From Dimorphilus gyrociliatus (taxonomy: Eukaryota > Animalia > Annelida): a stretch of 45,136 bases of DNA. Within the stretch, counting starts at the first letter, position 1, and every line of letters begins with the position of its first letter. The notes under the pieces were generated by a model, which had not been told where the DNA came from, did not search any database, and worked only from the letters and a program-made list of their open reading frames with translations. Location: positions 1-45,136 of the forward strand of contig CAJFCJ010000089.1 of the NCBI GenBank assembly GCA_904063045.1. The letters run 5' to 3'. Of this stretch, positions 18,202-45,136 are shown one piece after another. A program made the translations under genes and the position numbers.

Positions 18202-18219
18202 ATCCTGTCGACTGCGCCA
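18202..18219 (-). promoter_or_regulatory. Primer-binding site, tRNA-Ser
   Basis: TGGCGCAGTCGACAGGAT lies 4 nt downstream of the 5' LTR. Its complement ATCCTGTCGACTGCGCCA matches the 3' end of invertebrate tRNA-Ser(AGA/CGA) as I recall it (ATCCTRCCGACTGCGCCA), with one mismatch. Confidence 0.8.
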
Positions 18220-18223
18220 AATT

Positions 18224-20064: not shown

Positions 20065-20830
20065 TCAACATCTGATGCTTAAACTTTTGTTATCCTTTCC
20101 AAGAAGAGTTTTTAATGTCTGTTCTTCATAACCCAAACCACAGTTGTTGACATAAAGAGACCTCAACCTTTTTAGTGATTTTTCAGATATTTCAAAAATA
20201 TCCAAAATTCTATTTTTCATATTAGAATTCTCTGCTAAACATATTGTTTCCATTTTAGAACATTTTTGCAGAAGATTTCCCAGTTTTATGCTTTCTTCTG
20301 TTTCCAAAGAGCAGTTATTAAAGGCAATAAATTTGTAATGTTTCTGATGTTTGTTCAAGTCCTTCATTATTTAAGTTCCTTAAATAATCCATTTCTCAAG
20401 AATTCCCTGATAAATTATTTTTTCTATTTTAGAACTTTTTTCAGAAGATTTCCAAGTTTTGTGCAATGATGTTGTTCCAAAGAGCATTGTTGTAAATCAA
20501 TATACTTTAATGTTTGCGATGATTGTTCAAGTCTTTCAAAAATATCAAAGAATCCATTGCGTTTTGTATCATTATGTGATAAATCTATTGTTTCTATTTT
20601 AGTGCACTTATTAAGAAGATTCCCAATTTTTTTGCTCTGTTTTGGTTTCAGAGAATATCTGCTAACGTCAAAAAAAATCCACCCCCGGTTTCATGAATTC
20701 ATGATAACATTATTTTGGAACAATTTTTTAGAAAATTTCCACATTGTGTGGCTTGTCTTTGATTCAGACAGCAGTTGCTAACATCAATATTCTTCAATGT
20801 TTTTGCTGATTGCGCAAGTCACTTACAAAT
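20065..20830 (-). pseudogene. RI-like LRR array, frameshifted
   Basis: Units such as FIAFNNCSLETEESIKLGNLLQKCSKMETICLAENSNM, with several frame breaks upstream. Confidence 0.75.
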
Positions 20831-21339
20831 ATTAAGAAACTTTTTTTCTTGGTTTTACTACTAGTTCTATTCATTGTTTCCTTTGATCTCTAACAAAAAA
20901 CAATTTCAAGAAACTTTTCTTCTTTGATTTATATTGAAATATAAGATCTTCCTTGAATTAAAATATTTATTGAGATATATTTCAGCTTTCAAAAATTTGT
21001 AGTTCTAGAGAGATTATAGCAACAGCAACCATGCTAAAATTGTTGTTGTGACAAAGGTTTTAGAAAATGTAAAATTGTGAAATTAAAATATCTTTCCAGA
21101 TGAGGATTGACTTTGCCATTTAATATCAACTATCTTTCTGTATTCTATTGTCGTTATCTTAATTTTTATTAGCAAATAAAAGATATTTGTCAACAAGTTT
21201 ATATTAAACTTTCACAATGAACATCAAGATTTGACTAAATATGATATGTATTGAGTATTCTGACCTTTTATCTCTCATCAAATTAGCTAGAGTATTTCAA
21301 TCTTCTATATCACTTTTAAAAATGTTTCTTGTTTTTTGT

Positions 21340-21924: not shown

Positions 21925-22480
21925 TTCAAAAGCTGCCTAGTAAGGTATGGGAATGTTTGATACAGTGGAGTAGATTAGTGAGAAAAGTTTGAGCTGCTCC
22001 AGCCAACTAAGCAAACACATTAAGAAAGAAACAATTCTTTATGTGGTCTTTAATTGTCTTTAATTTTGGATGCCAGAAGGCTTGTTCTAAGGTATGAATT
22101 GTTATATCAATACCATAATGCTCAAATAGCTGATGTTGATGAATTTGTCCAAGTAGGTTGGTTAAAGTTGATAGTGGTATTACAAGTAATGGTTGACAAC
22201 CATCTAAATACCATACTAGATCCTCTTTAACAAACATATTTTCAATGAAGTTTATATATTCATACAATGCTTCAGCATCAACATTTTCTCCCTCCAATTT
22301 CTCTACAACTTTCATCAGTGGAGTGTCTAAAATTTGTTCTGTATAGAAGTCTATTTTAACAGTTGTAGTTTTTAGTTTCATAACTTTAAATTGATTTTCA
22401 ATTGTTTCTTCATCATACTCATCATCTAAAGTATCATCTGAACAATCATCTAATTCTTCTAGATCCTCTTTATCGATATA
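21925..22480 (-). mobile_element. Diverged Gypsy pol remnant (connection region and integrase zinc-binding domain)
   Basis: FIENMFVKEDLVWY...LLVIP...IHQHQLFEHYG...AFWHPKLKTIKDHIKNC aligns with FIMEMFVHKEMIW...ILVLP...FHKNKIHNHHG...TFWHPKLKIMIENSIKDC of copy 1. PLYQTF follows downstream. Confidence 0.65.
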
Positions 22481-22540
22481 AAAGCATTTAAGCAGGGAGC
22501 CAAGTAAGAGCAGTACAATAGAATTTGTATAATGTTATTA

Positions 22541-22743
22541 TGAATTTATGGTAGGGGTCTTTAGTTATATTATGTTTCAGTTTTGCTTCCTTCTTCATCT
22601 GCTTTTTAGCCATTTGCATGTGTAGAGTAAAATAGATTCCTTCATTTGTAATCTTAAATTCTCTGGCTGGTAGTCCTTTATACCATATGCCCAATGTTGG
22701 TAATACCTTCTTTTTGATTCTTTTCTCACTGTATACATATTTT
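22541..22743 (-). mobile_element. env fragment from an older subfamily
   Basis: Clear nucleotide homology to ~39797-40000. It reads VYSEKRIKKKVLPTLGIWYKGLPAREFKITNEGIYFTLHMQMAKKQ in one frame. Confidence 0.85.
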
Positions 22744-22829: not shown

Positions 22830-23494
22830 ACAGTGAAGCAGGTATGACAAAAAAATAATTTAAATGGAAGAATTGCAGTAAAAAAACCTGCTTTATCCAA
22901 GAGGCAGATAATAAGTAGGAAAGAGTTCTGTAGAGAGAGAGAGAAAAGTAGGGGATTAAAAATTGGAAAAAAGTAATTTTTTCTGATGAATCAAAGGTTG
23001 AGCTGCATCCCAAGAGAAGGGAGTTTGTTAGGAGGCCACCAGGTAAATGGAATGACCCCAAATATACCACAAAAACAGTAAAATTTGGAAGAGGGAATAT
23101 CATGGTGTTTGGCTACATCAAATTTACTGGAGATAGGGGCCAAATTTTGAGCAGTCATGTTGTCCCAAACTATAGGAGAGGGGAAATTTTCCAGCAGGAT
23201 GGGGCTAGCTGTCATACAGCAGATAGAACAAAATCGTACCTCAAGAGAAAGGGAGTAGAAACACTGGATCCATGGCCAGCAAACAGCCCAGATCTGAACA
23301 TAATTGAGCAAATATGGGGCATGTGCAAAAAATGTTTAATGGCACATAAGCCAAGAAACAAGGATGAGCAGTGGGAGATGTTCAGAGAAGAATTTTTTAA
23401 AATTTCAGAAGTGGAAATTCAATTCTTATATGAGACAATGGAAAGAAGGCTTAGGGCAGTTGTAGAAGCTAAGGGTATGCACACAAAATATTAA
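22830..23494 (+). mobile_element. Tc1-like transposase remnant (DD35E spacing)
   Basis: GRIAVKKP, WKKVIFSDESK, TVKFG.G.IMVFG, FQQDGASCH and WPANSPDLNIIE motifs are present. There is a frameshift at a GA microsatellite and an internal deletion after TGDRG. The 5' end is missing. Confidence 0.9.
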
Positions 23495-23779: not shown

Positions 23780-25468
23780 TTAACATGTTATTTTTACTTT
23801 AGTATTTTTGTTTTGCAGTCTTAAAATATATGATTGTTGATCCTTTGTTTGTTTACAGGCTCCAAAATTAATGATTCTTATAGTTTTAGATGATTGAAGT
23901 CCATCACAAATTTCAGCAAGTCCATTATCAACATTTCGATTTCCAAATAGAGAAATGACTTCAATTCTAGAACAACATTTTAACATTTTACCAATATTTA
24001 TACATTGATTTTCACTTAGATTACAATCACTCAAATCAATTTCTTTTAAAGTATTGCGTAATGATTCAGAAATTGTATCACAAACAATCAATAATCCATT
24101 TCCTAGTTCTCTATTGCCTGATAAATTAATTATTTCTAATTTGAAACAAACTTTCAAAACATTTCCCAAGATTTCACATTCTCTACTCATTATTTCACAT
24201 CTACTAAAATCAATCACTACCAATGTTTTTGATGAGTGAATCAGTCCATCACAAATTTTTAAAAATCCACTTTTCATGTTCAAATTCATTGATATATCAA
24301 ATATTTCTATATTATTACAAGCATTCAGCATATTTCCAATAAAGGTACACATTGTTAATTGACACTTTTTAAAATTTATCCTCTGTAAAACATGAGATGA
24401 TTGAACAAGTCCATCACATATCTCTAATATTCCATTTCCCATATTATTATTCCAATGTAAATCAATTGTTTCTATATTAGAACATTTTTTCAGCAAATCT
24501 CCAACAAAAATACAATGAATTTTTGTCAGATTACATAAACTAAAATCAATATATTTCAATGTGTTTGATGAATTTTCTAATCCATCACAAATCTTTGATA
24601 TTCCATTTGATATTTTTATATTATTAATTAATAAAATTGTCTCTAATTTAGGACAATTTCTCAAAATATTTTCAACATCTATACACTGATTCTCCGTTAT
24701 ATTACAATCACTAAAATCAAGATATTTTAAAGTGTCTCTTGATTGTATAAATCCATCTTTAATCCCCAATAATCCATTAAATATATTGAGATTACCAAAT
24801 AATTCAAGTGTTTCCAAATTAGAGCAGTTTTTAAGAAAATTTCCAAAATTTTTACATCCATTCTCTGTTAGGCCACAATGGCTAAATTGTAGTTTTTTTA
24901 ATGTTTTTGATGATTTCGTTAGTTCATCAATAATCAGTACTAATCCATTTTCCATATCTCCATTACCACATAAATCCATATTTTCCATTTTGGAACAAAA
25001 ACTCAACATTTTCACTAAATTTATTGATTGTTTCTTATTTAGGTTGCATGAATTAAAGTTAACATTTTTTAGTGTATTTGATGATTGAACAAGTCCATCA
25101 CAGATATTTAAAATCCATTTTTCATATCCTGATTCCAATGTAAATCAATTGTTTCTACTTTCCAGCAATTTTCCAGCATATTTCCAATACTTAGAGATTG
25201 TTTTTCTGTTAAGTTACTTTCGCTAAAATCAATATAATGTATCTTTTGATTGGGCGAGTCCATTACAAATCTCAGAAAATCCATTTCCCATTCTTTTACT
25301 ATTACAAATTTTTATTGTTTCTAGCTTCGAAAATTTGAATAACATCTTTCCAATATTCTTAATCTGCTTTTCAATGAGATTACAATCACTGAAACAAATA
25401 CAGGTTAAAGTATTTGGTAATTGAAAGAATCCATTGTGTATTTTTGGAAGTTCATCATTCATTTTCAT
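23780..25468 (-). pseudogene. RI-like LRR array (57-aa A/B units); 452-aa open segment with two upstream frameshifts
   Basis: About eight units of the pattern LxKCSxIExIDLxxNxxMGNGxxxICDGLxxSSxxLxxIxFxxCxL. Frame breaks at ~25105 and ~25230. Paralog at 35443-36604. Confidence 0.85.
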
Positions 25469-26511: not shown

Positions 26512-27579
26512 TTACATTCCAGTGCTTTTAATGTTTCTGATAGTGTTGCTTGTAGTCAATGAGGTTTCGGCCATTGAACTTTTGGATAAGTGTTTGTTTT
26601 TGTTAAATAGCTTGAAAAATTCTTTCCGAAATTTTTTGCCACTTAAACAGTAACAATAGAAATTAAATGAGTGATTTGATTTATCAAACAAATCGCAGAA
26701 TAGGGCAGCCTTCTTTAGGAAGAGTGCATCATCAATTGTTGGAGCTGTTAAAATATATCTAACATAGACAAACAATGCAGAGCTAGGGATTGAAGAGAGA
26801 ATAAAATATATGGAAATTATTATTAGGATAATTGAAGAATTTCTCATTTTATCGGATTGTTTGGAATTTGCGGTAGAAGAAAGGTTTTGTCTCTCTTTTC
26901 CTGCACTGATAAGAGCTCTTAGTATTAGGATGTTAGTTATAACAAGGATAATTCCAGGTATAAAGGTAGTAAAGACTATTTCCAATGTTGGAGTGATTTT
27001 TTTTAAATAATAATCCCATTCTTTTGTTTTTGCCAAACAAAACAACAGTCCCGCCCATTTATTCGATTTATTACTTATCAGCCACACTCTATCATACATT
27101 AGATAAAACACAGAATTAGCTGCCATTGAAATGAGAGTTATAGCTAGAATAATAAGGTAAGTTCTCTTTTTGTTAACTAGGCTTTGTGCTCTTGTCGGCA
27201 ATAGAATGTAAATGCTCCTATCAACGGTCATAGAACACAGAAATAATACACTAAGTTGTTTTGCAAACTTGGTAAAGTAGTTTTTACTCATGCAAACCAC
27301 ATATAAAACTATCTTCGTATTACTGTAGAATGTTTCTTCAACTGTATAAAAGAAATCTAATGTAAACATAACAATAAGAACTAGCGTGTCTGCCAAAGCC
27401 AAAGCTCGAAGATAGATTGATGTTGTTGTTCCACTCATATAACTTTTTGCAAATATTGCATAACTGCAAACATTACCAAAGATACCCATAATGACAAGAA
27501 GAGATCCAACAGATTGTCTTCCATAAAACCAATCTCTAGCGTCCTCGTAATAAATTTTGGTAGCATTGCTATTATTCAT
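26512..27579 (-). CDS. Intact intronless rhodopsin-class (peptide-receptor-like) GPCR, 355 aa
   Basis: ATG to stop, an N-terminal N-glycosylation site, seven hydrophobic segments, GIFGN, LRALALAD, TVDRS and NHSFNFYCYCLSGKKFRKEF. Confidence 0.93.
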   Translation of the reverse strand: MNNSNATKIYYEDARDWFYGRQSVGSLLVIMGIFGNVCSYAIFAKSYMSGTTTSIYLRALALADTLVLIVMFTLDFFYTVEETFYSNTKIVLYVVCMSKNYFTKFAKQLSVLFLCSMTVDRSIYILLPTRAQSLVNKKRTYLIILAITLISMAANSVFYLMYDRVWLISNKSNKWAGLLFCLAKTKEWDYYLKKITPTLEIVFTTFIPGIILVITNILILRALISAGKERQNLSSTANSKQSDKMRNSSIILIIISIYFILSSIPSSALFVYVRYILTAPTIDDALFLKKAALFCDLFDKSNHSFNFYCYCLSGKKFRKEFFKLFNKNKHLSKSSMAETSLTTSNTIRNIKSTGM

Positions 27580-28319
27580 ATTTAAAAATATTATGGTAAT
27601 ATTCTAAAACAATTTACTGACAAATTCTTAGTCCTTTATAAGAAGAATGATAGGCCTAAAGTTCATGAAACACAGTAGTTTTTTTTACTCATTAAGGGTA
27701 TTTGCAGAGCTTAAAAACAATAACCTCAAGGAGCCGACAGATATCACTTTACAATTTAATTCTATTTATAGAAACAACAGTATTATAAACTCCTTTATTC
27801 TTTTACATGAACATAAAAAACATGAATTCATTTATTGATAATTACAGAATAAGAAAATGTTCATTGATTATAAATAGACTATGCCATTTTTCTAATTAGG
27901 AATCTTTTTATCATTTATTGCTGTCTTATTTAAGTTTTAATTGTTTTCGCAAAGAATACATCTTTATGAACCAACTGGTTCATAAGTTTGGTTAGGCAAA
28001 AGGCAAAAATAATTAATAATTTATATTTAAAATTTTCTGATTTTTTATTAACATCATAAATAATTACATCACTATTTTTGTATTGACATGAAAGAATCCA
28101 AACTCATCAAGAAAGTGCACACCTATTGGATAAAATGACAATCCTGGACACACTTATGGATATTTTGCACATCTACTTCTCCCTTATTTCACATTTAGGT
28201 TGAGGAAAATATTGGAAAATCACCCTGGTAGGTTATATAAACAACTGCCATTTCCTCACCTTTTAAAGTTTACTTATAGGCTACAATCTTGAAAATAGAT
28301 TACATTTGCTAATGTCAAA

Positions 28320-30890
28320 TGGGAGGGATGCTATATATTGTCCCAAAGGTACAATACCATGCAATTCAACTGGAACATGTGTCAGTCAAATGTGTATTTG
28401 TGATGGTGTATTTGATTGTTTAAATGGTGAAGATGAGTCATTTTGTCGAAACAATCAAATCCATTATTTCCATTGTGATAACAAAGAGAAAATTGCTTAT
28501 CAACACCTTTATAATCATATAAATGATTGCACCAACAAACTAGATGAATTGTATTGCAGTAAGGAGACATTTTATCTTTGAACTGTTATCAATTAATTTT
28601 AAAAACATACAGCATTCCCATCTTGTAATGCCAATTTTAGGTTTAAATCTTTGTTTTCAATGTTTCAATAAAAGTTCAAATATTTGCAAATCTAGGTGTG
28701 ACAATGGTCAATGCATTAATGAAGCATTAATATGCAATGGTGAAAAAGATTGCTTTGATGGCTCAGATGAAGCTTGCTTCATTCCTCCTAACAGTAATTT
28801 TATCTTTTTTGGCTTTGGGAGATGGCGATCATGGAAAAAGTCTGCAGAGATACGGAAAACATCTATAAAGTACACTTTTTTCCCCCCAAGTCTCAAATAT
28901 TCTATTATGTAGATGTAGATTTCTACATTTCTTCATTTTTATATAAGTCTGCTTCATGTTTTAACTTTTGAACAATGGCATAATTTGAAATGAATTGAAT
29001 GATCTAATCCATGTATCTTAAGCTTAGACAACTCATTACATTCTTGTAGGTGATCTTTTATAATTTCAAACATCTTTTTGATGTATTCTGATGGTAAAAC
29101 TGGTGAAAGAATGTCTAATTGCAAACCATTCTCCTATCCATTTTTGTATTATGTGACTGTTTTCCTATTTCTTCTATTAGTTTTTCTTTTTACAATTTTT
29201 TCGTGCCGCCATTTTGAAAGCTGACGTAATAGCTTAAAATAAGAAAGAGTAATCCTTTTGCATTTTCCTAATATACAATTCTTAAATTACTAACCAATAA
29301 AGAAAAAACTAGTGGTTGAAGAATTTTTCAAGTAATCAACCTCTCATTGGACGTTTTCCATTTTGAACTTTTTCCATGATATCCATCATTAACCCTAACC
29401 CTCAAAACCTATGGAAATGTTTTATCTTTGCCACACTCACTATTCTATTTGTATGATGATAAGTGTGAATTTTTCCCTTTTTTCTGTTCAATAAAATACA
29501 GGTTGCAAAAGACCAGCTGAGCAGTTTCACTGTGATGATAAATGCATCAAAGTCATAGATATGTGTGATAATGTCAAGCATTGTAATGATTTTTCTGATG
29601 AGATAATTCAAAATTGTGTAGAAAGACAAGGATTTAATTTTAACACAGCAGAAAAGTTGTATTAATGTGTAGTAAAATATGATACTTTTGGTAATTTACT
29701 CTCCAAAGTACATTCACCTTATGAAGATTTATTTTATTGCCAACAATTCAAGTGTCCTGACGATCATTACAAGTGCTATCTTGCTGGTTATTGTATTTCG
29801 ATCGAACAAGTATGCGATGGTGTTGGACATTGTCCCAGAGCAGATGATGAAATTGACTGTGACAATTTTTATCCATCAGGATATTTCAAATGTCGCCATG
29901 ACAGACATTTCATTGATATTAAAAGTTATTGCGATTCTAAAATGGATTGTATGATGGGAAGTGATGAATTGCTATGCTCTCAAATTCCACCATGTCCACC
30001 AAAATGTTTTTGTTTTCCATTCCATATAGTTATGTGTGATTTTCAATTTCAGACACATTTCGATATAAGTGAAATCCAGAATGGAATGTATAAGACAATC
30101 TGTACAAAATCTGGATTAATATATTCACCAAAAGAAAGATTTCAAAATTATTATTTAACTAAAATTCTATTTATAGATTCACAATGGATAAATTTAATTG
30201 ATTTTTCATATTCCTTTCCAAATGTTGTAAATATTACCTTGATAAGAAGCAACATTACAAATTTTTATACTATTTTTAAATCTCCAATGAATAATTTGCT
30301 ATTTTTATATTTAACTGATAGGGCAATAACCAAATTACACTTTGGATTTCATTTATTTCCAAATTTGAAGATCCTGGATTTGTCTAGAACAAACATTAAA
30401 ATGATTAATAATGAATTTTTCAAAGGAATTACTAAACTTTCATCTCTTTATTTGACAGAAAACGACTTTCAGCATATTCACAAAAGTGCATCCAAATATT
30501 TGAGAAATATCTCTGAGTTGTATATGAATAATACTCAGTTTCCTATTGAATCAATTTTTCATTTTATGAAGGAGTTAAAAAATATTAAGATATTGAATAG
30601 CATATTTTTTGAATCTTGTTGCATTGCCAAGAAAGTTTCAAGTAAATTGAAAAATTGCCAACCAAGCGAAACATTAATAAAATCTTGTGAACATCTCTTG
30701 GCTAACGATTTATTAAAATTAATTGTCTGGATAACTGGTTTACTTTGTATTTTACTAAATTGTTTGTCAGTATTCTTTAGGATAATCTTAAAGAGGAAAA
30801 ACAGAAACTACACATTGCTATTATTAGCTGTATCAGATTTCTGTGTAGGAGTTTATCTTTTAACCTTAGCTGGAGTCAGCATGAATGAAA
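28320..30890 (+). pseudogene. GRL101-like LDLa-repeat/LRR GPCR, damaged and truncated after TM2
   Basis: Multiple LDLa repeats (CICDGVFDCLNGEDE, CNGEKDCFDGSDE, CDNVKHCNDFSDE, CDGVGHCPRADDE, CDSKMDCMMGSDE), then LRRs, a hinge (CCIAK..C.PS...CEHLL) and TM1-TM2. It has stops and frameshifts and ends ~80 bp before the mariner. Confidence 0.8.
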
Positions 30891-30970
30891 ATGGAAAATC
30901 CCAAAGGTAGTAACAGGCATTCAGTCCTGAATCAACTCCCTTAGTGAACAGGTCTAGTATTATTTTTATA

Positions 30971-32294
30971 TATTAGGTATGAATGAAAAGTTTTGGTCAC
31001 TGTGTGTTTTTTGTTAGAAATATTTGATGAATGTGATTAATTTTTGTGTATGTTAAAGCCTAAAGTATATGCTACAAATATTGATAATTTAATTTTTCAA
31101 TAGTCCCCTCCTTTTTCTATACAAGCCTGCCATTTGCTAGGAAGTAGAGTGATGCCGTTCTGGTAAAACAAGGTTGGCTTTCTCCTCAGAAAATCTTTGA
31201 CATCTGTCTTCAATTCCTCCAAATTGTCATAATGGGATCCTCTGATATGGTCCTTCAATCTCCCAAAAAGATAATAGTCAGAGGGAGCCAAATCAGGACT
31301 GTAGGCTGGGTGAGGGCATAATGACCACCCTTGATCTCTTATGAAATCTGTTGTGTAGAGACTTGTATGCAGTCTTGCATTATCATGCTGTAGTATCATT
31401 TGTTTTCCAGGTCTAATTCTATGCAACCTCTTCCTTAGTCTCTTTAGGGTCTCAACATATTGTATTGAGTTGACTACTTCTCCATACTCCATGAATTCAA
31501 TGTGGACTAAACCAGAATAGTCCCAAAAAACTGAGCACATCAGTTTTTCTGCTGACTTGGCCATTCTAAGCTTCTTGTCAGGTGGAGATGATGTGTGTTT
31601 ATAAGTCAAAGAAGACCTTTTAGATTGTGGATCATAGAGGTGTACCCAGGTTTCATCTCCAGTCACAATTTTTTCTAAAAAGTCTCTTCCTTCTGCCATG
31701 TATCTTTCAAGTAGCTCTATACAATGACTCACCCTCACCTGCTTCTGGTCCAGATTGAGAGCATAAGGAATCCATTTTGCACAGATCTTTCTGTATCCTA
31801 GCTCCTTTATAATTTTCCCTACAGTCTGTTGACAAATTTCTATTTGTTGGGCAATTGCTCTCTGAGAAATGGTCTGATCTTCTCTGATAAGCCTGTCAAT
31901 TTCTTCTCTATTCTGACCTGTTACAACTGTGCTTGGACGACTAGATCTTGCCAAATCTTCAAAATTTTTTCTTCCTTTTTTTATGTCAGATACCCACCTC
32001 CTTATTGAACTTTCACTCAGAGTTTCATCCCCACAAAAGCTTTTTATAAATTTGTCTCGCAGACACCTTCTCATGCACTAAAAATGCTATGATTGGTCAT
32101 TGATCGGAATGTGTGCACATGACTTGCAGTTGCTTATACCAAAATAAATTTGTAATGCCTCAACAGAATCGAATGAAAGTTTGCACAGTGAAAGTTTACT
32201 AATTTCCTAAGATTATTGGAAAGTATCAATGATATTAGTTAAGCCGTTTTAAAATTACAGCACAGTGACTGAAACTTTTCATTCGTAACTAATA
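30971..32294 (-). mobile_element. mariner DNA transposon, full length
   Basis: ~34-bp TIRs (TATTAGGTATGAATGAAAAGTTTTGGTCACTGTG, four mismatches between the two), TA flanks, ~1.32 kb. Confidence 0.93.
31097..32074 (-). pseudogene. mariner transposase (DD34D) with a damaged N-terminus
   Basis: WIPYAL, VTGDETW, QHDNARLH and YSPDLAPSDY are present. The true N-terminus (DQ*PIIAFLVHEKVSARQIYKKL) is in another frame and carries an in-frame TGA. Confidence 0.88.
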
Positions 32295-32527: not shown

Positions 32528-34181
32528 CTACTTTCTAATTGAAGTTTTTACACAAAAGAAAGGATTGTAATAAATCCCCAACATTTTTATTGTTTGTCCA
32601 TCTATTGGAAAATAATTCAAAATTTCATCATTCTTATAAATACCATATGATAAATTTTTCATTTCTATTTTAGAGCATTTTTTTTGTAGATTTTCAAATT
32701 TTGCAATTACTTTTTCAACTAACGAGCAGCTGCTAACATTGATTTGCTTTAATGATTCTAATGATTGTTTGAGTCCTTCACAAATATCAAAAAATCCATT
32801 ACTCATTTTCATATTCCCAGAAAAAAATATTTCTTCAATTTTAGAACATTTTTTTAAAAGAATTCCAAGTTTTTTGCATTGATCTTCTTCTAAATTGCAT
32901 TGTTGGACATCAATACATCGTAATGTTTTTGATGATTGTTCAAGTCCTTCACAAACTTTAGAAAATCCATTTCCCATTATCTTGTTACATTTTAAATCTA
33001 TTATTTCTATTTTTGAACAGTTTTTTAAAAGATCCCCAAATTCTGTGCATTGGTTTTCTTGTAAATAGCATTTGTTAAAATAAATATACTTGAGTGTTTT
33101 TGATGAATTCTTAAGTCCATTACAAACATTGCTAAATTCATTCATCAATAATTTATTATCTGAAAGATCTATTGTTTCCACTTTAGAACATTTTTCTAAA
33201 AGATTTCCAATTCTCTCAATTTGTTCATATTTTAATAAGCAGCTTCTAAAATTAATAGACTTTAATGTTTCTGATGATTGTTTGAGTCCTTCACAAATAT
33301 GAGTAAAACCATTATTTATATTCCAATACTTAGATAAATGTATTTCTTCTATTTTAGAACATTTTTTCAAAAGATTTCCAAAATTTTCGCAATCCACTTG
33401 AACAATCACTAAAATTAATATAATTCAATGTTTCTGAAGATTGCGCAAGACTTTGACATATCTCAATAAATCCAGCACACATACCGTTATTCTCAGATAA
33501 ATCTACTTTTTCTATTTTAGAACATTTTTTTAAAAGTATTCCCAATTTTTTGCATTGTTCTTGTCTCAAATCACAGTTCAGAAATTTAATAGACTTTAAC
33601 ATTTCGGAAGATTGTTCAAGATATTTACAAATATAAAAGTTGCCATTGGAGATTCTTGTATTGTTTGATAAATCTAATGCTTCTATTTTAGAACATTTTT
33701 TAAAAAGATTTTCCAATTTTATACATTGTTCTGATTTTAGAGAACAGTTGTTGAAAGCAATAAATTTTAATGTTTCTGATGATTGTTCAAGTCCTTCGCA
33801 AATGTCAAAAAAGCCATTTTGCATTTCAGGATTGAATGATAAATCTATGGTTTCTATTTTAGAACATTTTTTCAGAATGTTTCCAATTTTTGAGCAATGT
33901 TCTTGTTTTAAAGAGCAGTTATTAAAGACAGTACAATTTAATGTTTTTGATGATTTTGCAAGTCCTTCAAAAATAATTTTGTAGTTGTCAGTTTTCTCTG
34001 GCATATTGTTTTTTTCTAACCAAAATACAATTCTAACAATATCTTCTCTTTTCCATAGATTGAAATATAAAATTAAAATTTTTGAATATACAAAACATAC
34101 AAATATAAAATTTGAAATATTTAGTTGTGAAGATCTTGAAAGAATAAAATGACTTTCAGAGATTTCTTTGACAAAAGACAA
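32528..34181 (-). pseudogene. RI-like LRR gene with one frameshift at ~33400
   Basis: ORFs 33354..34181 and 32528..33409 carry consecutive 57-aa units (LKKCSKIETIDLSFNPEMQNGFFDICEGLEQSSETLKFIAFNNCSL). Confidence 0.85.
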
Positions 34182-34729
34182 GATTGGATATCCAGTGAAT
34201 TTCTTATGTTTAAGTACTAATAATAATCATAAAAACCTTGTTTACATAGGACAATAACAATAACATTTTAGGCTTATGAAATGGTTATAATATCAGTCAT
34301 GTTTTAAATTCGTAATATTTGCTTGTATCTAAAAAACATAACGTAATATTCTTACTCAAAAATATCTTACAGAAGGAGGGAAGCCATAGTAATAACCACC
34401 ATTTTAAATGGGTAATTGTAGTTATAAACATTTTATATTCATAAATTTCTAACAGTCACTCTATTAATTTACTAACTTTTAAATGTCAACGAAGTTGGGG
34501 AGAAGTTTCCCACTCTGAAAAAGTCAGCACAAGTTAGTCCTTTCAGTAGCAGGAGTATGACTAGATTGATGAAAAAAGGAGTATGTTTTCTCTTGGATAA
34601 AGAAAACTTCCATGTTAGAAAAGGCATTAATTTCTGAAACAATCCTCCTAGTAAACAGATCTAGTATAACTTTAGAATACAGTTATATTATTCCTACGAA
34701 TTGGTTATTTATATCATATTCTCTCAATT

Positions 34730-35442: not shown

Positions 35443-36604
35443 TTAACATGTGATCTTTACTTTAGTATTTTTGTTTTGCAGTCTTAAAATATATGATTGT
35501 TGATCCTTTGTTTGTTTACAGGCTCCAAAATTAATGATTCTTATAGTTTTAGATGATTGAAGTCCATCACAAATTTTGGCAAGTCCATTATCAACATTTC
35601 AATTTCCAAATAGAGAAATGACTTCAATTCTAGAACAACATTTTAACATTTTACCAATATTTATACATTGATTTTCACTTAGATTACAATCACTCAAGTC
35701 AATTTCTTTTAAAGTATTGCATAATGAATCAGAAATTGTATCACAAACAATCAATAATCCATTTCCTATTGCTCTATTGCCTGATAAATTAATTACTTCT
35801 AATTTGGAACAAACTTTCAAAACATTTCCCAAGATTTCACATTCACTACTCATTATTTCACATCTACTCAAATCAATCAATACCAAGGTTTTTGATGAGT
35901 GAATCAGTCCATCACAAATTTTTAAAAATCCACTTTTCATGCTCACATTCCTTGATATATCAAATATTTCTATATTATTACAAACATTCAACATATTTCC
36001 AATAAATGTACACATTGTACTAGTTAATTGACACTTTTTAAAATTTATCCTCTGTAAAACATGAGATGATTGAACAAGTCCATCACATATCTCTAATATT
36101 CCATTTCCCATACTATTATTCCAATGTAAATCAATTGTTTCTATATTAGAACATTTTTTCAGCAAATCTCCAACAAAAATACAATGAGTTTTTGTCAGAT
36201 TACATAAACTAAAATCAATATATTTCAATGTGTTTGATGAATTTTCTAATCCATCACAAATCTTTGATATTCCATTTGATATTTTCATATTACTAACTAA
36301 TAAAAATGTCTCTTATTTAGGACAATTTCTCAAAATATTTCCAACATCAACACACTGATTCTCTGTTAGCTTACAACCACTAAAATCAAGATATTTTAAA
36401 GTGTCTCTTGATTGTATAAATCCATCTTTAATCCTTGATAATCCGTTAAATATATTGAAATTACCAAATATTTCAATTGTTTCTAAATTAGAGCAATTTT
36501 TAAGTAAATTTCCAAAATTTTTACATCCATTTTCTGTTAGGCCACAGTAGCTAAATTGTAATTTTTTTAATGTTTTTGATGATTTCATTAGTTCATCAAT
36601 AATC
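35443..36604 (-). pseudogene. RI-like LRR array, duplicate of 23780-24900
   Basis: Colinear high identity to the 23780 copy. CGA has become TGA at ~35600, and there is a frameshift at ~36300. Confidence 0.85.
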
Positions 36605-36890: not shown

Positions 36891-37615
36891 ATGTACTCAA
36901 CTTATTCTTTTAAATGGTACTATCATTATTTCTTTAACTCATGCATATTGTCATTTGTTTCTAATATTTTTTATCTTCTTTTTCACATAGATAAGAATAG
37001 AAACAGGAAGTTTTTCAATATTGAAAAACTATCTTATCTATTTGATAATGTAGAAGAATGGATTGTTGATACAAAAAGTGAACTTGAATTTAAAATTAAA
37101 AAGTTAAAGAGAGAATCTACTAAATTTGATGGTTTTATCTTCATTGAACTGCTCTTTAAAACAAGAACATTGCTCAAAAATTGGAAACATTCTGAAAAAA
37201 TGTTCTAAAATAGAAACCATAGATTTATCATTCAATCCTGAAATGCAAAATGGCTTTTTTGACATTTGCGAAGGACTTGAACAATCATCAGAAACATTAA
37301 AATTTATTGCTTTCAACAACTGTTCTCTAAAATCAGAACAATGTATAAAATTGGAAAATCTTTTTAAAAAATGTTCTAAAATAGAAGCATTAGATTTATC
37401 AAACAATACAAGAATCTCCAATGGCAACTTTTATATTTGTAAATATCTTGAACAATCTTCCGAAATGTTAAAGTCTATTAAATTTCTGAACTGTGATTTG
37501 AGACAAGAACAATGCAAAAAATTGGGAATACTTTTAAAAAAATGTTCTAAAATAGAAAAAGTAGATTTATCTGAGAATAACAGTATGTGTGCTGGATTTA
37601 TTGAGATATGTCAAA
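36891..37615 (+). pseudogene. LRR gene fragment containing an inverted near-identical duplicate of 33455-33922
   Basis: 37146-37615 is the reverse complement of ~33455-33922 with about one substitution, fused to a different 5' segment. Confidence 0.8.
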
Positions 37616-37634
37616 AAAAATTTTTTTGATAAAA

Positions 37635-38099
37635 ACCAATAGACATGAAGAAATCTTCAGGAAATAAGTTATGAAAGTCAACATCATCAACATGGAAAAA
37701 TTTTAAAAAAGGTGAAATTAATGCAAAACAGCTTCTGTACTTGTGCTTAGAATTGTATTTTCGAAAAATATTTGAACCAGTATTGTACTGTGCAGATAGC
37801 ACTGATAGAGACAACCAATATTGACCTAGTTTTGTGTAGGGTGGGGCATATACAATGCACTGCATAAATTCTATTAAAGATTACTTTAATTAAATGCCTG
37901 ATATGCTCTCATTCGAAGTTTTACACGACATGCATTATTTAGACAAGGAGTGGAAGAAACCATACCAATAATAAATGAGTTATTTCGCTCATTCGAAGAA
38001 TGAAATAATAGGCAAAACATATTCATGGAGAGGCTGGCAGGTTGAAATATTTATATAATTGTTTTTGAAGAGTCTATTCAAAAATTATGTGTGGAACAC
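37635..38099 (+). repeat. Duplicate of 25836-26510, interrupted by retroelement copy 2
   Basis: Homology ends exactly at the LTR edge (AAATTATGTGTGGAACAC|TGTAC). Confidence 0.8.
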
Positions 38100-38734
38100 T
38101 GTACTGCTCTTGCTGGCAAAATCTATGCGTTTGCAAGTTATAACAATACTGGTTCTACTCGAACCTTTAAACAAATGTTTAAATTAAAATGGTTTATTCG
38201 CAATAATAATACTTAAGCAAGTAACAATATGAGAGTTCAATAGCAGAGTAGATAGTTTGTAATAGCAGGTTGCCAAATTACCAAACTGTCTTCCAATGTT
38301 GAGGAGTAGATGGATGGTTCCAGTGGAGGTTGTTTCCAGATGATTTTCCCAGGTCCTTGGGTCCAGATGGAAGCTGCATGCCAAATGAGAATAATGAGAA
38401 TTTATATACTTTGAGGTTTGTCTCTGACATCCAATCATCACTTTACAGTTGCCGAAATGTGTAGTTCATATTTATCTTTAGTAACAGGATGTTACAAGGT
38501 TCAACATTTAGGAAGGTTAATTGAATTATAACTTGGCCACACCCTAGGCAAGTTAATTAAATTATAACTTGGCCAAACCTTTATTGGTAATTAAAGATGA
38601 GCCTTCAAGCTGACTAATCAGACTTATGTTTGGCCAATGTTATAGCATTTTCTTGCGTAGGTTTTAAGATGTACATGTATATGTTGCATAAAATAATAGA
38701 GTTCAAGCATGTAAAATATAACCAAAGTTGTACA
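38100..38734 (-). repeat. 3' LTR (635 bp)
   Basis: TGTAC...GTACA termini, preceded by the PPT. The outer flank is ACAC (GTGT in element sense). Confidence 0.95.
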
Positions 38735-38747
38735 ACTTCCCCCTTCT
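38735..38747 (-). promoter_or_regulatory. Polypurine tract
   Basis: AGAAGGGGGAAGT abuts the 3' LTR. Confidence 0.9.
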
Positions 38748-38765
38748 TTGTGAAGATGAGTCCCT

Positions 38766-41185
38766 TCATCTTGATTTAATGAGAATTACAGGTGGTTGTT
38801 CTTCTTCATTAGTTTGATGTTGACTAAAGCTACAACTTTGTTTCATTAGTTTTGGGTTTTCAGGAGAGTTATCTGTGCTCTCACTTGGGGTAGCAATTTC
38901 TTCTCTTTGTTTTCTTCTTCCAATAATATAGTTGAAAATGATGATACATACCATTGACACTACAATACTCAAACAAATATTTCGTATGATAACATAAAGT
39001 GTTTTCCCAGGTTTATAGTACCAACTATGGAAAAACTTTTTAATTCCAGATAAATTGGGTACAATGCCATTTTTCTCTGCAACAGTGACCATGTTATCAT
39101 ACCTTGCCTGCTTCTGTTCCAGTGAACTGATAACTTGCTTAATTTTTGAGTGCTGGTATGCAATATCCTTCTTTACCCCATGGTGGAGTAGATCAGCTAA
39201 TCTGGCAATTTCAATTTTTGGTTCAGAAAGGTGATTGTGGATATGTAACTGCATGGATTTTGCAGACACAGTGTGAAATCTGCATCCTCTTTCTGAATAA
39301 TACACATACGTTTTGTCTTTCATTGGTTGGTTTCTTATAGGATTTAATGGGTTGTGAGTTGTTTTGTAGAATAACTTGTTAGACTTACACTCATTATAGG
39401 TAATCTCTTCAGGATTGACTTGCTGTAAAACATGAGTAACTGGTTCTACTTGGAAAAGCAGGTTGTTCATGGTGACAAGTAAAAATTGAGAACATTTGTT
39501 ATTCTTTTTTATCATGCTTAAGTCACAAACTACTTCTGTTGAGGCTATTGGTGAACATTGTTTAATTATAGCTAATTCTCCCATCTGACTACTGTGCATT
39601 CCCAACTCATTTGTTAACACTGTGGTCAATTGAGGATCCAAATTTGCTAGTAATGCCATCATTCTGCTTCTTTGAACAAATTGATTGCAGAGAAGACTTG
39701 ACAGCTGTTGGGTAAACTTTTTTAAATTCTTAAAATTTGAATCAATACCATGTAGTAAGGTAGATGTTTGGGCAGCTTCTCTCATTTCCAATGGGAATTT
39801 GTGGTATGGGTTTTTACTTATCTTATGTTTCAGTTTTGCTTCCTTCTTCATCTGCTTTTTAGCCATTCTCATGTGTAGAGTAAAATAAATTCCTTCATAG
39901 GTAATCTTAATTCTCTGGCTGGTGGTCCTTTATACCATATGCCCAATGTTGGTAATACCTTCTTTTTGATTCTTTTCTCACTGTATACATATTTTGAAAT
40001 CGTGACAGATTGTCTTGTTGCCCTTGTCCAATTGACTGCTTGCAGCATTTCTTGGATATAATAGTTATCCAGCTCCCAGTAAGATGGACTAATGGGTTGT
40101 TGTAGATGATATATCACAACTTCCTTGAGTGTGCCTTTATTTCTCATTAGTTTATACTTTGTGTTTGTTTCTCTGTACCATTGGTTAAGACTTGGTAAGG
40201 GGTTGTTTCGCTTGTATAGTATAATTTGTTCTTTAACTTTATTGGGATAGTTTAATAGTCGTTTTTCTTCATTTTTGCCAATCTTCTGATATTGTAGCAA
40301 ATTGTATAGGTGTTCCTTGCTTGTTTCCTGTATTAAACTCTGTTCCTCCAGTGGTACTAGTACTTTTGTTCCAGGACCACCAATTCCATCAATAAACTTA
40401 TCTTGATAAGGGATGTCCAGAATAGAATACCCTGGACAAGAATAGTGACCAGCAAATTTGATACAACTAATTCTGTTGCTAATTTTTATCCATGGTGATT
40501 GTTGCCCAAGTGTGTAATTATTCTTGAGGTTCCTAAAGACAATAATTGCCTCTTCTGTTTCACAATAGGACTGCCCTGGTAAACAATCTTCCAGGTAGTC
40601 CAGATTAGTTGTAATTTTCATATTAGGAGGTTGCCAATATGCTTTGCCAAACTGGATAATTGTGGTGTATTCCAGCACCTTGGTCGTTGTTGGCCATGTG
40701 TAGGCAGCAGGAAACTGATCTTGGTGGATCCAAGTGTTTCTTTTCACCATTAAAGGTTTTCCTTGAAAAGATCGTTTGTCTTTTATCATCTGTCTGCATT
40801 GATCATGAGTTACTTTGATAACTGAGTTAACAATCCTCCTCTTCTTTGCTCCAAAGAAATAGTAAGTGTAAAAATTAGTTCTTAGATACACTTGACATTT
40901 TACTGCTCTTGTTTCAATTTCTTCCAAGTTCAATTCATAGATATCAGCTGTAATTGTCTTGGTTTCTTGTGATTCTATATTACAAGTTGGCTCATCTGCT
41001 AGATCAAATGCCTGGCTTGGTAGTTGGTTAGAACAAAAGTATAATGGTGGTTTAAATGTTAAGGTAATGTTTGCACTTGTAACATGGGCACCTTGGTAGG
41101 ATGGTTTTGGGACTGTTATTGAGTGGATGCAGCCACAGATCACCATTACAGTCATCACTAGTGGAAGCCACAACATCTGTTTCAT
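38766..41185 (-). CDS. env: Envelope-like glycoprotein (~806 aa), class III fusogen-like; 1-nt deletion at 39909-39910
   Basis: Signal-like MKQMLWLPLVMTVMVICGCIHS, a Cys-rich ectodomain, N-glycosylation sequons (NIT, NYT, NWT, NLS), TM ICLSIVVSMVCIIIFNYII followed by GRRKQR, and a short tail. The frame is restored by comparison with 22541-22743. Confidence 0.85.
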
Positions 41186-44100
41186 GTTAGCTCTTCCTGT
41201 GTTGGCTATAGTTGAATGGTTGAAAATTTTGTGTTGTTGTTCCACTCTGATAGTTATTCCATCTTCTAACTCTATATATTGTGGTTCCACTTCTTGTTGG
41301 GAATCTAATTGTTCAGAGATGATTTTAGTCTCATCTAAAAATATGACTGACTCATTGTCTGTGTCACTTGTATTTTCTTTCTCATCTTGGGATGAATCTA
41401 CCACTATGAGGGACTCATTATCTGAATGGGTTATGTCAATAATTTCACCTTCAATAATTATTGACTCATTATCCGAATGGGTTATATCAATAATTTCGCT
41501 TTCAATAATTATTGACTCATCGTCTGAACTAGATATTTCATCTTCTCTATCAGAGATAATGTTTGCCTCTGAATCTGTATTTTGATCCAGTTCATTATTT
41601 GTTTCTGTGTCATCACTTTCAGATGAGCTTGAAGGTTCATTGAGACTGTAATTACTGTCTGTTTTGAAAGTATTGCTTGTGTCATAACCAGTATCAGAAT
41701 TAGTAACTTCCATCTCTGAGTCATCACTATCTGAACTTTCTGATGAAGAGTCATGCTGTCCCATCATGGCTATAGTGACTTTGTTTAGTTGAGGTTGCCT
41801 TATTCTTTCAGCCAGGTTCCCTTTCCTTCTATCAAATTTGAGAGAACACTGTTTAGCTTCAAAATTGAGGTTTGCTCCCACAGTTTGTAGGAAATCACAA
41901 CCAAGTATTATTGCTATGTCTAGATTTTCCATAACTATAAATTCTTGTTCCATACTTTCTCCAGCAAATTGGATATTCAGCTTTACGCTTCCTTTTTGCT
42001 TTAAAGCTTTCCCATCAGCTGAAGTTATAATTGGTAAGCCAATTGTTTCTTTATCCATAATTGTAACATCCATTAACTTGATTTCTTTTTCAGTAATAAA
42101 GGATCTCAATGCTCCTGTGTCACACAAGGCAATGACTTCTTGGCCTTTTTGATTCTTCAAACGGAATTGGAAGTCATTTCTTCCTTCTACCTGAGAAAGA
42201 TATTGGAGGTGTGTTATTTCCTTCTCCACAAGGTGAAAGATTGTTGTTGCTTCTTTCCCTGTTTCCAACTTATTAGATTCATTGGCTAGTCTTAATCTGC
42301 TACCATGTACCAACTTGCATGTATTATCATCCATTTGTATTTCATATATCCACTTTTGATGATTGACTTTTGTTATTCGGTATGGGCCTAACCATTTTAA
42401 AGAAGGGATTTTTGTTATTGCAATTCTTGCAGCATCATTTCTTAAGAATACTTCATCATCAACCTCAAAATATTTTGGAAGATTGAGATTTCTATTCTTT
42501 CTTTCCCTATATTGTTCTTTTGCCATGATGGATTTACAGAAGGCTGTAGCTCTTAACTGTACTAATTGCTGCTGGTGATTGAATACAAATAGTACATTTG
42601 TTTCAGGAGAGGTAGTATGCATTGTTACATCAATCAGTGTTCTTGTGCTGGTGCCAAAAAGAAGTTCCTGGGGTGGTAGTCTTGTACTTCCTACAGGTGA
42701 TTGATTCAAAAATGCTTGAATCAAGGGTAGGTTTGCAACCCAGTTATGCTGATTTTCTTCCACCACTAATTTATTGATTTCCTTCCTCACTTCTCTATTT
42801 CTTCGTTCAACTAGTCCATTGCTCTGGCTTCTATAAGCTGTTGTTTGGATTTTCTCAATACCTAATACCTTCATAAACTCTTTAAAAGCTTTACCAACAA
42901 AGTTTCTTCCTTGATCTGTCAACATTTGTTTTGGAATTCCAAAAATGGGAAAAAATCTGTTGAAAAGAAGGTTTGCAATTTCTTTACTGGTTTGCTGTTT
43001 GAGTGCATATAAAACTGTGTATCTACTGAAATGATCCACTATCACAAGTATGAATCTGTATGACTTAACCATGGGTAAGGGTCCCATTATATCCATGGCT
43101 ACCAACTCCATTGGTGATGCAGGGTGAAAGGTTTCTACCAAAGGGTATACTCTACTCCTACCATTCATTTGTTCACACAAAGTGCAATCCTTTATTGAAT
43201 TCTCAATCATAATCTTTAATTTTGGGTGCCAAAAGGTCTTTGTAATTATTTGTAATGTCATTCTGGGTCCATGGTGATTGTGAATTTTATTTTTATGGAA
43301 TTTAGGGAGCAGAGTTAGCATCAAATGGTCAGGTAAAACCAGAATGTTTCTTTCTTCAAGGATAATCCAGATCATTTCCTTGTGAACAAACATCTCCATT
43401 ATGAAAGGTGTAAAAGTTCCAAAATAAGGAATAGGTAGCTGACCATCCAATGTTAAATATTCTTTAATTGATTTTAAATTCACATCTTTTTCTTGCTCTG
43501 ACTGTAAGTCAACAGAAGACAAATCAATTTTCTCTTCACTGTTATCACTGGTAGCTACAAAAGTTAACTCTGGTGTATGTTCATACTGTTCCATTTTAAC
43601 TGAAATAGAGGGAGAATTCTCCTTTTTGATCTTTCCATGAATTAGCTCTTCAAATGTTACTTTCCTTGGGGGTGTATATTCTTCTAATCTTGTTAATGCA
43701 TCTGCTCTATTTTTTCGTCCTGTCACATAGTTAATTGTAAATTTTAAATCCATTAAAGCCATGACCCATTTTGCTGTGCTGACATTCAATTTGTTTTGCT
43801 TAAATGTTTGTACTAGACTCTGATGGTCAGTATATAAAAAGAATGGCTTGTCTTGAAGGTAATGTAAAAATTTCTTTACAACCCAGTAAACACCAAATGC
43901 TTCCTTTTGATAGGCTGCATATTTCATTTGATTATTGTTGAATTGTTTTGAAGCATAGGCAATGGGTTTCATTGTTTTCTTCCCATTCTCATCTACATAA
44001 ACTTGTTCAAGAACTCCTCCTACAGCTACATTCGATGCATCTGTTGTTAAGTGAAAATCTTTAGCAAAATCAGGTAGTTGTAATACAGGAGGGTTAACTA

Positions 44101-44605
44101 CTGCATCTCTCAACTTGAAAAATGATTGCTTGGCTTCCTCAGTCCATTGCAATTTATCCTTTTTCCCATGTAGTTTCATTAACATATACAGAGGTTTAGC
44201 TACTCTTGCAAAATCTTGTATAAATTTTCTGTAATAGCCACAAAATGCAACAAAGCTTAGTAGTGAATTTGCAAACACTGGTGGCTGTAAATTATATAAT
44301 TTATCTGTCTTGGACTTATCTGTTTCAATCCCCTTTTCTGATACAATGTGTCCCAAGAATTGAACTTGTTCTTTCAAAAACACACATTTACTTAGTTTAA
44401 TCTTAAAATTGTACTTTTGAATCTGTTGAAGAATGGTCTCCAATGCTTCCCAATGTTGGTCCAGCGACTTGGTAAATATTATTATGTCATCAAGGTAGTT
44501 TAGGCACAAATGCTTTACATCCTTTAGCACAAATGAATTCATTACATAACTAAAATGAGGAGGGGCATTGGTTAATCCAAAAGGCATCTTAATAAATTCA
44601 AACAA
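39869..44605 (-). CDS. pol: Pol-PR2-Env polyprotein segment (RT/RNase H/IN/GPY-F/second protease/acidic linker/Env)
   Basis: 1578 uninterrupted codons with YLDD (44486-44497), D,D35E, KWLGPYRI, CDTG and the Env signal, all in one frame. Confidence 0.93.
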   Translation of the reverse strand: MFEFIKMPFGLTNAPPHFSYVMNSFVLKDVKHLCLNYLDDIIIFTKSLDQHWEALETILQQIQKYNFKIKLSKCVFLKEQVQFLGHIVSEKGIETDKSKTDKLYNLQPPVFANSLLSFVAFCGYYRKFIQDFARVAKPLYMLMKLHGKKDKLQWTEEAKQSFFKLRDAVVNPPVLQLPDFAKDFHLTTDASNVAVGGVLEQVYVDENGKKTMKPIAYASKQFNNNQMKYAAYQKEAFGVYWVVKKFLHYLQDKPFFLYTDHQSLVQTFKQNKLNVSTAKWVMALMDLKFTINYVTGRKNRADALTRLEEYTPPRKVTFEELIHGKIKKENSPSISVKMEQYEHTPELTFVATSDNSEEKIDLSSVDLQSEQEKDVNLKSIKEYLTLDGQLPIPYFGTFTPFIMEMFVHKEMIWIILEERNILVLPDHLMLTLLPKFHKNKIHNHHGPRMTLQIITKTFWHPKLKIMIENSIKDCTLCEQMNGRSRVYPLVETFHPASPMELVAMDIMGPLPMVKSYRFILVIVDHFSRYTVLYALKQQTSKEIANLLFNRFFPIFGIPKQMLTDQGRNFVGKAFKEFMKVLGIEKIQTTAYRSQSNGLVERRNREVRKEINKLVVEENQHNWVANLPLIQAFLNQSPVGSTRLPPQELLFGTSTRTLIDVTMHTTSPETNVLFVFNHQQQLVQLRATAFCKSIMAKEQYRERKNRNLNLPKYFEVDDEVFLRNDAARIAITKIPSLKWLGPYRITKVNHQKWIYEIQMDDNTCKLVHGSRLRLANESNKLETGKEATTIFHLVEKEITHLQYLSQVEGRNDFQFRLKNQKGQEVIALCDTGALRSFITEKEIKLMDVTIMDKETIGLPIITSADGKALKQKGSVKLNIQFAGESMEQEFIVMENLDIAIILGCDFLQTVGANLNFEAKQCSLKFDRRKGNLAERIRQPQLNKVTIAMMGQHDSSSESSDSDDSEMEVTNSDTGYDTSNTFKTDSNYSLNEPSSSSESDDTETNNELDQNTDSEANIISDREDEISSSDDESIIIESEIIDITHSDNESIIIEGEIIDITHSDNESLIVVDSSQDEKENTSDTDNESVIFLDETKIISEQLDSQQEVEPQYIELEDGITIRVEQQHKIFNHSTIANTGRANMKQMLWLPLVMTVMVICGCIHSITVPKPSYQGAHVTSANITLTFKPPLYFCSNQLPSQAFDLADEPTCNIESQETKTITADIYELNLEEIETRAVKCQVYLRTNFYTYYFFGAKKRRIVNSVIKVTHDQCRQMIKDKRSFQGKPLMVKRNTWIHQDQFPAAYTWPTTTKVLEYTTIIQFGKAYWQPPNMKITTNLDYLEDCLPGQSYCETEEAIIVFRNLKNNYTLGQQSPWIKISNRISCIKFAGHYSCPGYSILDIPYQDKFIDGIGGPGTKVLVPLEEQSLIQETSKEHLYNLLQYQKIGKNEEKRLLNYPNKVKEQIILYKRNNPLPSLNQWYRETNTKYKLMRNKGTLKEVVIYHLQQPISPSYWELDNYYIQEMLQAVNWTRATRQSVTISKYVYSEKRIKKKVLPTLGIWYKGPPARELRLPMKEFILLYT
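41412..41528 (-). repeat. 51-bp (17-aa) tandem repeat in the acidic linker
   Basis: Units start at 41412, 41463 and 41514. Peptide: (DNES)IIIE(G/S)EIIDITHS. Confidence 0.9.
41830..42180 (-). other. Second retropepsin-like aspartic protease domain (PR2)
   Basis: ALCDTGALRSFI (DTG at 42113-42121), a flap-like ITSADGKALKQKG and IILGCDFL (41888-41909), in the same layout as PR1. Confidence 0.9.
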
Positions 44606-45136
44606 GCCAAAAGGTGTAATAAATGCTGTTTTAGACCTATCTCTTTCTTGATGTTAATGTGGTGGTATGCACTTGTCAAATCCATTGTAGAAAGAATTTA
44701 TTTCCTCCTCCCAAATGGTCAAAAAGATCATCTTGATTTGGCAGTGGATACTTGTTTTTAACTGTCATTTTGTTTAGTTTTCTATAATCTACACACATTC
44801 GTAGACTACCTTCCTTCTTTCTTACGAAAACAATTGGTGAAGCCCAATTGCTCTTGCTTGGTTGAATAACTTTGCTTTTTACCAATTCAGCTATCTGTTG
44901 CTTACATTCTTCTTGTTTTTTGAGGAGGCATTCTATATGGCCTTTGTCTATATGGTGTTGAACCTGGTTCAAGAGTTATTTCCAAGGGTGGTACCTCTGG
45001 ATTGCCAATATCAAATCTGTCTTCTGCAATAGTTTCTTTATATTTTGCCAGAATTTGGGTAACTTTGTTCTTCATCTCGGGATTTTCTTGTTCAATTGTT
45101 GTCTGAAGGGTATGTATTTGACTCTCATTCTTTTTT

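Follow-up and report, generated by a model that had tools for sequence, protein, structure and literature searches.

A predicted class III fusogen as the env of a young Ty3/gypsy retroelement in Dimorphilus gyrociliatus

What kind of membrane fusion protein does the env gene of a retroelement in the annelid Dimorphilus gyrociliatus encode, where does the protein come from, and how is it made? The gene lies on the minus strand of a 45,136-nt stretch of DNA, contig CAJFCJ010000089.1 (here, the window), and an earlier note on this DNA had proposed that its product is a class III fusogen of the gB/chuvirus/rhabdovirus G type rather than an errantivirus F-type protein, captured independently by a Gypsy lineage. 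Our analyses make it highly probable that the gene is the env of a young, multi-copy Ty3/gypsy retroelement, likely Dgyr_errantivirus_1, and that it encodes a predicted class III fusogen, through which virus-like particles would be able to fuse with adjacent cells. The element, its second copy and its remnants occupy the following positions.

42830-45135, minus strand: pol of the env-bearing copy, with RT, RNase H and the integrase zinc finger and core; runs off the window
Between 44600 and 44950, minus strand: three frame breaks in pol of the env-bearing copy
41185-38766, minus strand: whole env, from Met at 41185 to the stop at 38766, in two overlapping frames
39872-41185, minus strand: env N-terminal piece, 438 aa from Met at 41185, in frame with pol
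38766-39929, minus strand: env C-terminal piece, 387 codons stop to stop, with a candidate central helix and crown, TM and cytoplasmic tail
39869-39929, minus strand: overlap of the two env frames, the gene break of the env-bearing copy
38735-38750, minus strand: polypurine tract preceding the 3' LTR
38100-38734, minus strand: 3' LTR, 635 nt, TG...CA
14204-18858, minus strand: second copy of the element, cut off at 14212
18858-18224, minus strand: 5' LTR of the second copy
18219-18208, minus strand: primer binding site of the second copy
18163, minus strand: gag ATG of the second copy
6665-7299, plus strand: solo LTR of the same element family, 96% identical, with a 4-nt GTGT target duplication
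22542-22743, minus strand: env relic of 200 nt, 94% identical to 39795-39995

The order gag-protease-RT-RNase H-integrase, together with the LTRs, primer site and polypurine tract, is that of Ty3/gypsy elements. The best PDB match of pol is Ty3 Gag-Pol (E 2.7e-101), foamy virus (1e-33) and other retroviral entries being far weaker; with Ty3 Gag-Pol as its best solved relative the element is of Gypsy type, as the earlier note had held, and none of the 13 Pfam families listed belongs to what we take to be the BEL/Pao type. In the second copy, gag, protease, RT, RNase H and integrase form a single unbroken frame, and the two copies are 99.66% identical over their shared 2366 nt. Their LTRs agree at 633/635 positions, from which we conclude that the element is young. 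The solo LTR sits within a host chitin-binding/TSP1/C1q gene (identified by Pfam); the ORFs at 7256-7615 and 6101-6781 share a frame, and LTR plus target duplication amount to 639 nt, so that a coding exon has probably been interrupted. The GTGT flanks at 6661-6664, 7300-7303 and 38096-38099 stem from two independent insertions, and their identity suggests a target-site preference. The region of the env relic (22007-22743, minus strand) is a jumble of retroelement fragments, in which the relic adjoins an ORF that contains an integrase zinc finger (E 1.3e-06) as well as an acidic stretch.

In the env-bearing copy, env is not a free-standing ORF but the end of a frame of 1594 codons (44653-39872, minus strand), which carries RT, RNase H, integrase and the start of env with no stop before env. 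The gene break within env was checked, together with the three pol breaks, against contigs of four runs from two studies over 38000-45136; one of these runs, X1, may be the source of the window DNA. At the env overlap the length of the crossing contig differs from that of the window in 4/4 runs, and the same holds at the three pol breaks. The homologue P0002 aligns to both env pieces within one ORF. Since the break is missing from the crossing contigs and P0002 is a single ORF, we take the break to be either particular to the env-bearing copy or an assembly error.

The motifs on which the class III proposal had been built were all recovered on the minus strand in the places assigned to them, and with the predicted fusion domain they are arranged as follows.

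40906-40841, minus strand: AVKC...GAKK
40816-40784, minus strand: KVTHDQCRQMI
40708-40685, minus strand: AAYTWPTT
40024-40013, minus strand: RATR
39695-39681, minus strand: LLCNQ
39650-39546, minus strand: LANLDP...CSPI
40529-40915, minus strand: predicted class III fusion domain, env aa 91-219, from its structural match to class III chains
40853-40858, minus strand: candidate fusion loop 1, tip FF, env aa 110-111, in the turn between model strands 69-88 and 91-102
40688-40702, minus strand: candidate fusion loop 2, YTWPT, env aa 162-166, in the loop between model strands 130-140 and 146-164

The N-terminal piece thus appears to comprise, in order, a signal-like segment, a PH-like domain with an inserted fusion domain, and an insertion of ~160 aa. 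By hydropathy scan, a hydrophobic segment with a KD peak of 2.07 directly follows Met at 41185, and at about 38978-38922 there is a C-terminal TM (KD peak 2.69), so that the protein has both the N-terminal signal and the C-terminal anchor, the latter as previously claimed, that are typical of class III fusogens. There are 10 cysteines in the N-terminal and 9 in the C-terminal piece, and four N-glycan sequons. In a model of env aa 22-280, built from 5 sequences (mean pLDDT 60), FF and YTWPT form the tips of two long hairpins; both of the fusion loops that had been suggested from the sequence are therefore predicted to lie at aromatic hairpin tips, the arrangement seen in class III proteins. Model residues 50-69 and 199-259 align to gB domain II (4ot1; Z 4.2, rmsd 2.9 over 64), as well as to EVH1/PH folds (Z 3.0-3.8), which supports only one PH-like domain, and it is into this domain that the fusion domain is predicted to be inserted.

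Structural comparisons of the N-terminal model are consistent in pointing to class III proteins. All 37 matches listed by Foldseek against the PDB belong to gB or thogotovirus GP, with a best E of 1.4e-05 and TM-scores to gB of ~0.3, while the top matches listed from a viral structure library are mostly rhabdo-like, chu-like, herpes gB and orthomyxo glycoproteins (best E 2.7e-07). When compared with 48,161 chains, the model gives eight matches at Z>=5, all of class III (gB, rhabdovirus G or thogotovirus GP), the best being HSV-1 gB with Z 8.4 and rmsd 11.9 over 186, a Z near 8 being not rare according to the comparison tool's own note. The fusion domain by itself aligns with Chandipura G (Z 6.5, rmsd 3.9 over 113) and with MHV68 gB (Z 6.7, rmsd 4.2 over 129). 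A model of the homologue P0003, built from 7 sequences (mean pLDDT 50), matches gB with an E of 5e-09, and the top 9 rows of its structural comparison are class III, at best with Z 9.2 and rmsd 7.0 over 201. As modelled, env shares with herpesvirus gB, rhabdovirus G, thogotovirus GP and baculovirus GP64 a two-loop fusion domain within a PH-like domain, an N-terminal signal and a C-terminal TM; identities to class III structures in the structural alignments are 4-13%, and the env fusion domain, at ~130 aa, is of rhabdovirus size, in contrast to the 200-aa span in gB.

The candidate central helix and crown were not confidently modelled, residues 204-456 of P0003 having pLDDT <50. On these models and fold searches, the class III rather than F-type assignment is well supported for the N-terminal part of env, and we infer it for the rest.

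Sequence searches returned few relatives. With the C-terminal piece as query, HMMER found 7 matches among 1.84 billion proteins, two of them named D. gyrociliatus proteins. One of these two, P0007 (DgyrCDS14789), was dropped as an env homologue, being a chimeric public gene model that joins pol, env and LTR fragments of the element family to a TSP1/C1q host gene; the fusion is probably an annotation artefact. Two proteins align to the N-terminal piece as well, P0003 with 29% identity over 203 aa and P0004 with 27% over 232 aa; P0004 scores above the Pfam cut-off for Rhabdo_glycop_FD (25.6 vs 22 bits), P0008 is just below the cut-off for the rhabdovirus fusion domain (E 0.001), and the Glycoprotein_B match of P0002 is weak (E 0.022, below cut-off). 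The pattern Y/F-FFG[AV]K recurs in 3/3 homologues that reach loop 1 (P0003, P0004 and P0008), followed by a second loop with Trp. The window's env has ~160-200 extra residues before the candidate central helix, a region that is much shorter in P0003, P0004 and P0006. Word-based searches with the N-terminal piece, which covered longer proteins, yielded no further homologues, alignment A3 leading only to P0003 itself, and no relatives of the locus were found in the viral contigs or metagenome contigs searched. PDB sequence searches with the env pieces gave no fusogen match; in Pfam the window's own env pieces matched neither gB, rhabdovirus G nor Baculo_F, their only fusogen match being Phlebo_G2_C (E about 0.02, below cut-off).

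These results bear on whether env might instead be an F-type (class I) protein, as it is in most gypsy elements with an env (1291/1512 published gypsy envs; Chary and Hayashi, eLife 2026, PMC13524379). An Atlas feature search with the C-terminal piece does place Baculo_F-bearing clusters first (0.90 and 0.89, with 184 and 178 shared features), the top three clusters (0.89-0.90) carrying Baculo_F in 12-43% of their members, but shuffled proteins reach 0.9 in 4-10/100 cases, and the N-terminal piece gave no usable Atlas match. Against an F-type protein, Baculo_F was not matched in Pfam at E<=1 or 10, and no F protein is among the matches listed in five fold searches. F-type proteins combine a furin site with a hydrophobic fusion peptide, a combination that env lacks. 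The central RATR, which had been put forward as furin-like, did not hold up as such, and we rejected it as a furin site: it fits only the minimal R-x-x-R, of which at least one occurs in 52% of 5000 shuffles, and it is not conserved, as P0002 spans the region and is without RATR. The strict R-x-K/R-R is found neither in the env ectodomain nor in the 8 database proteins scanned, and the residues after RATR are polar and basic instead of forming a hydrophobic peptide. The F-type reading is largely refuted by the fusion-domain model, and we give it very little credence.

A class III env in gypsy elements is already in print, and the published cases very likely include the family of the window element. 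Of 1512 gypsy envs classified in PMC13524379, 221 are gB-type, and PMC7854359 (Martin-Duran et al., Nat Ecol Evol 2020) names the Dingle family, Ty3/gypsy elements of D. gyrociliatus whose env resembles CMV and HSV-1 gB (HHpred P>99). The view that gB-like env captures are found mainly in BEL/Pao elements is thus not sustained by these two reports. Like the window element, Anakin and related BEL/Pao elements (Dezordi et al.; PMC7642597, PMC10084718) are LTR elements with a class III glycoprotein, but the pol of the window element is of Gypsy type; the accessible text of PMC10084718 also describes Gypsy fragments beside chuvirus-like glycoproteins, with no clear capture.

The closest published counterpart is Annelida_Polychaeta_Dgyr_errantivirus_1, which is labelled ENV_HSV in Supplementary file 1 of PMC13524379 with 7 near-identical copies with env, and which is missing from the env sequence and cysteine-bridge tables of that paper as available to us. 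It has in common with the window element an identical 12-nt primer site (expected by chance 0.0003), a 4-nt gap from LTR to primer site, a 635-nt 3' LTR, a gB-type env and a Gypsy pol. Measured from primer site to 3' LTR end, both elements are 8680 nt long, a figure obtained for the window by adding the lengths of its two copies. The two differ in that the published 5' LTR measures 630 nt, vs 635 here, and in that the published family is listed with a chromodomain, which is undetected in the window element: after the integrase (42553-41804), Pfam gave no Chromo match at E<=10. From these landmarks (primer site, gap and length), and not from sequence alignment, the window element very likely belongs to the Dgyr_errantivirus_1 family. 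Dingle likewise resembles it in being Ty3/gypsy with a gB-like env downstream of the integrase. As originally posed, therefore, the finding adds little, gB-type gypsy env having been published; what is added here is an independent structural check, and the placement of the fusion loops, for an env that is labelled but not analysed in the tables of PMC13524379 that were accessible. The discussion of that paper raises the question of whether retroelement envs of gB type need herpes-like partner proteins for fusion.

With respect to origin, the earlier note had argued that the lineage captured its glycoprotein independently, which would mean from a chu- or rhabdo-like RNA virus, rather than inheriting an ancient gB-type env. 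The rhabdovirus-sized fusion domain would fit such a capture, as would the RNA-virus glycoproteins that head the predicted-structure matches, although identities to all viral matches are <=17%, so that no donor stands out. For nematodes, Sacco et al. 2022 reportedly argue for capture from an RNA virus. Judged from row order, Dimorphilus is apparently the only ENV_HSV case among 74 annelid rows of PMC13524379 (148 'Annelida' matches at two per row, the first two ENV_HSV rows being 15 and 88), a distribution that would also favour capture; yet the same paper reports gB-type env in gypsy elements of many phyla (cnidarians, ctenophores, tunicates, rotifers, arthropods, nematodes, bryozoans and flatworms), and its authors favour an ancient origin, near the base of animals. 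Taken together, we regard independent capture as rather unlikely.

If env is the class III fusogen that we propose, its action can be pictured from known systems. Following the model of rhabdovirus G and herpes gB, env would be taken into the ER by its signal segment, the protein would trimerise, its fusion loops would insert into the target membrane, and refolding around the central helix would drive membrane fusion; by analogy with Drosophila gypsy, particles from somatic cells may then enter the germline.

Env could, on the other hand, have kept the class III fold and no longer drive infection, the element spreading within cells and being held down by antisense RNA. The four frame breaks of the env-bearing copy would accord with such a state, but all four are missing from the crossing contigs in 4/4 runs, and the published family has 7 near-identical copies that retain env (PMC13524379). 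The loop aromatics and cysteines are, moreover, conserved in distant homologues. A role for antisense RNA is suggested by run X5, the type of which is not on record, where intron-like skips occur on the antisense strand, as follows.

42033-42092, plus strand: antisense skip in X5
39354-39412, plus strand: antisense skip in X5
38414-38479, plus strand: antisense skip in X5

These are 3/13 joints of that run; they skip 59-66 nt and have GT..AG ends on the antisense strand, whereas sense-type GT..AG ends are found in 0/13. The base rate of GT..AG ends is ~0.003 per joint without sliding, and the skip sizes fit the median D. gyrociliatus intron of 66 nt (PMC7854359). There are hints here of spliced antisense transcripts, the alternative being DNA deletions; should X5 prove to be RNA, antisense transcripts of the element are made and spliced, in keeping with host silencing. 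Overall, an env that has ceased to drive infection seems improbable, and we retain the reading of env as a fusogen acting between cells.

The unbroken frame upstream of env raises the question of how env is produced. Between integrase and env it holds two further features.

41837-42148, minus strand: second retropepsin-type aspartic protease (Pfam RVP_2, E 5.3e-07, above cut-off)
41234-41761, minus strand: Asp/Glu/Ser-rich spacer of ~175 aa, from the second protease to the env Met

The second protease follows the integrase tail after about 40 residues and has an intact DTG (42121-42113) and an ILGCDFL motif. Its protein is 31% identical to the gag-proximal protease, and at the DNA level the two match only over short stretches, on which grounds a recent duplication was rejected as its source. 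Over aa 976-1125 of the long ORF, the spacer contains 40-60% D+E+S per 25-aa block. A word-based search with the post-integrase region found no relatives.

With no stop before env, release from a polyprotein by an element protease is favoured; we lean slightly towards env being freed in this way, after which the internal signal segment would act. In Drosophila gypsy, env is translated from a spliced subgenomic mRNA. The window's env might likewise come from such an mRNA, starting at Met 41185, the in-frame fusion then being incidental and the second protease having another job or none. Position -3 of this Met is an A, AG dinucleotides occur just upstream, and the hydrophobic segment begins directly after the Met, all of which would suit a spliced message, but an open frame of ~370 codons has been kept from the integrase tail to env with its protease motif intact, and the DNA-type contigs of X1 and X2 run through the region unbroken and gap-free, with a single substitution. 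Near the env start, no sense-strand splice joint was seen in the X5 contigs, 6/8 loose ends being listed. Synthesis from a spliced mRNA is a tentative but serious possibility.

Beyond release by an element protease in general, a more specific proposal is that a giant polyprotein, gag-protease-RT-RNase H-integrase-second protease-acidic spacer-env, is made, from which the second retropepsin, dedicated to this role, frees env and exposes an internal signal peptide; the capsid-protease strategy of alphaviruses is an analogue. We consider this proposal doubtful, and in a bolder form of it both proteases, being part of one chain, could join into a pepsin-like single-chain enzyme. Were the giant polyprotein real, the element would combine two proteases with a fusogen that falls between rhabdovirus G and gB. 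The second protease would matter if env leaves the polyprotein through it, because that route to env is absent from PMC13524379 and PMC7854359 in their accessible parts. The main text of the former, as available, mentions no second protease, polyprotein or in-frame env and uses 'protease' once; in the latter the word occurs once in the main text and not in the supplements, and the domain map of its Extended Data Fig. 3d may show a second protease. We found no description of a second protease in gypsy elements in the literature as consulted.

Elsewhere in the window, a cluster of leucine-rich-repeat genes (20065-20850, 23780-25400, 32528-34226, 35599-36600 and 37108-37629) is built on a unit of 171 nt (57 aa) and includes duplications, both direct and inverted, that are nearly identical; an LDLa-LRR receptor-like gene lies at 28267-30910 (plus strand). 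DDE transposase ORFs, of Tc1/mariner type by Pfam family, are present at 31097-32077 (minus strand) and 22952-23494 (plus strand). A rhodopsin-family GPCR ORF is found at 26512-27603 (minus strand), with a similar-looking candidate ORF at 3282-4136 (plus strand).
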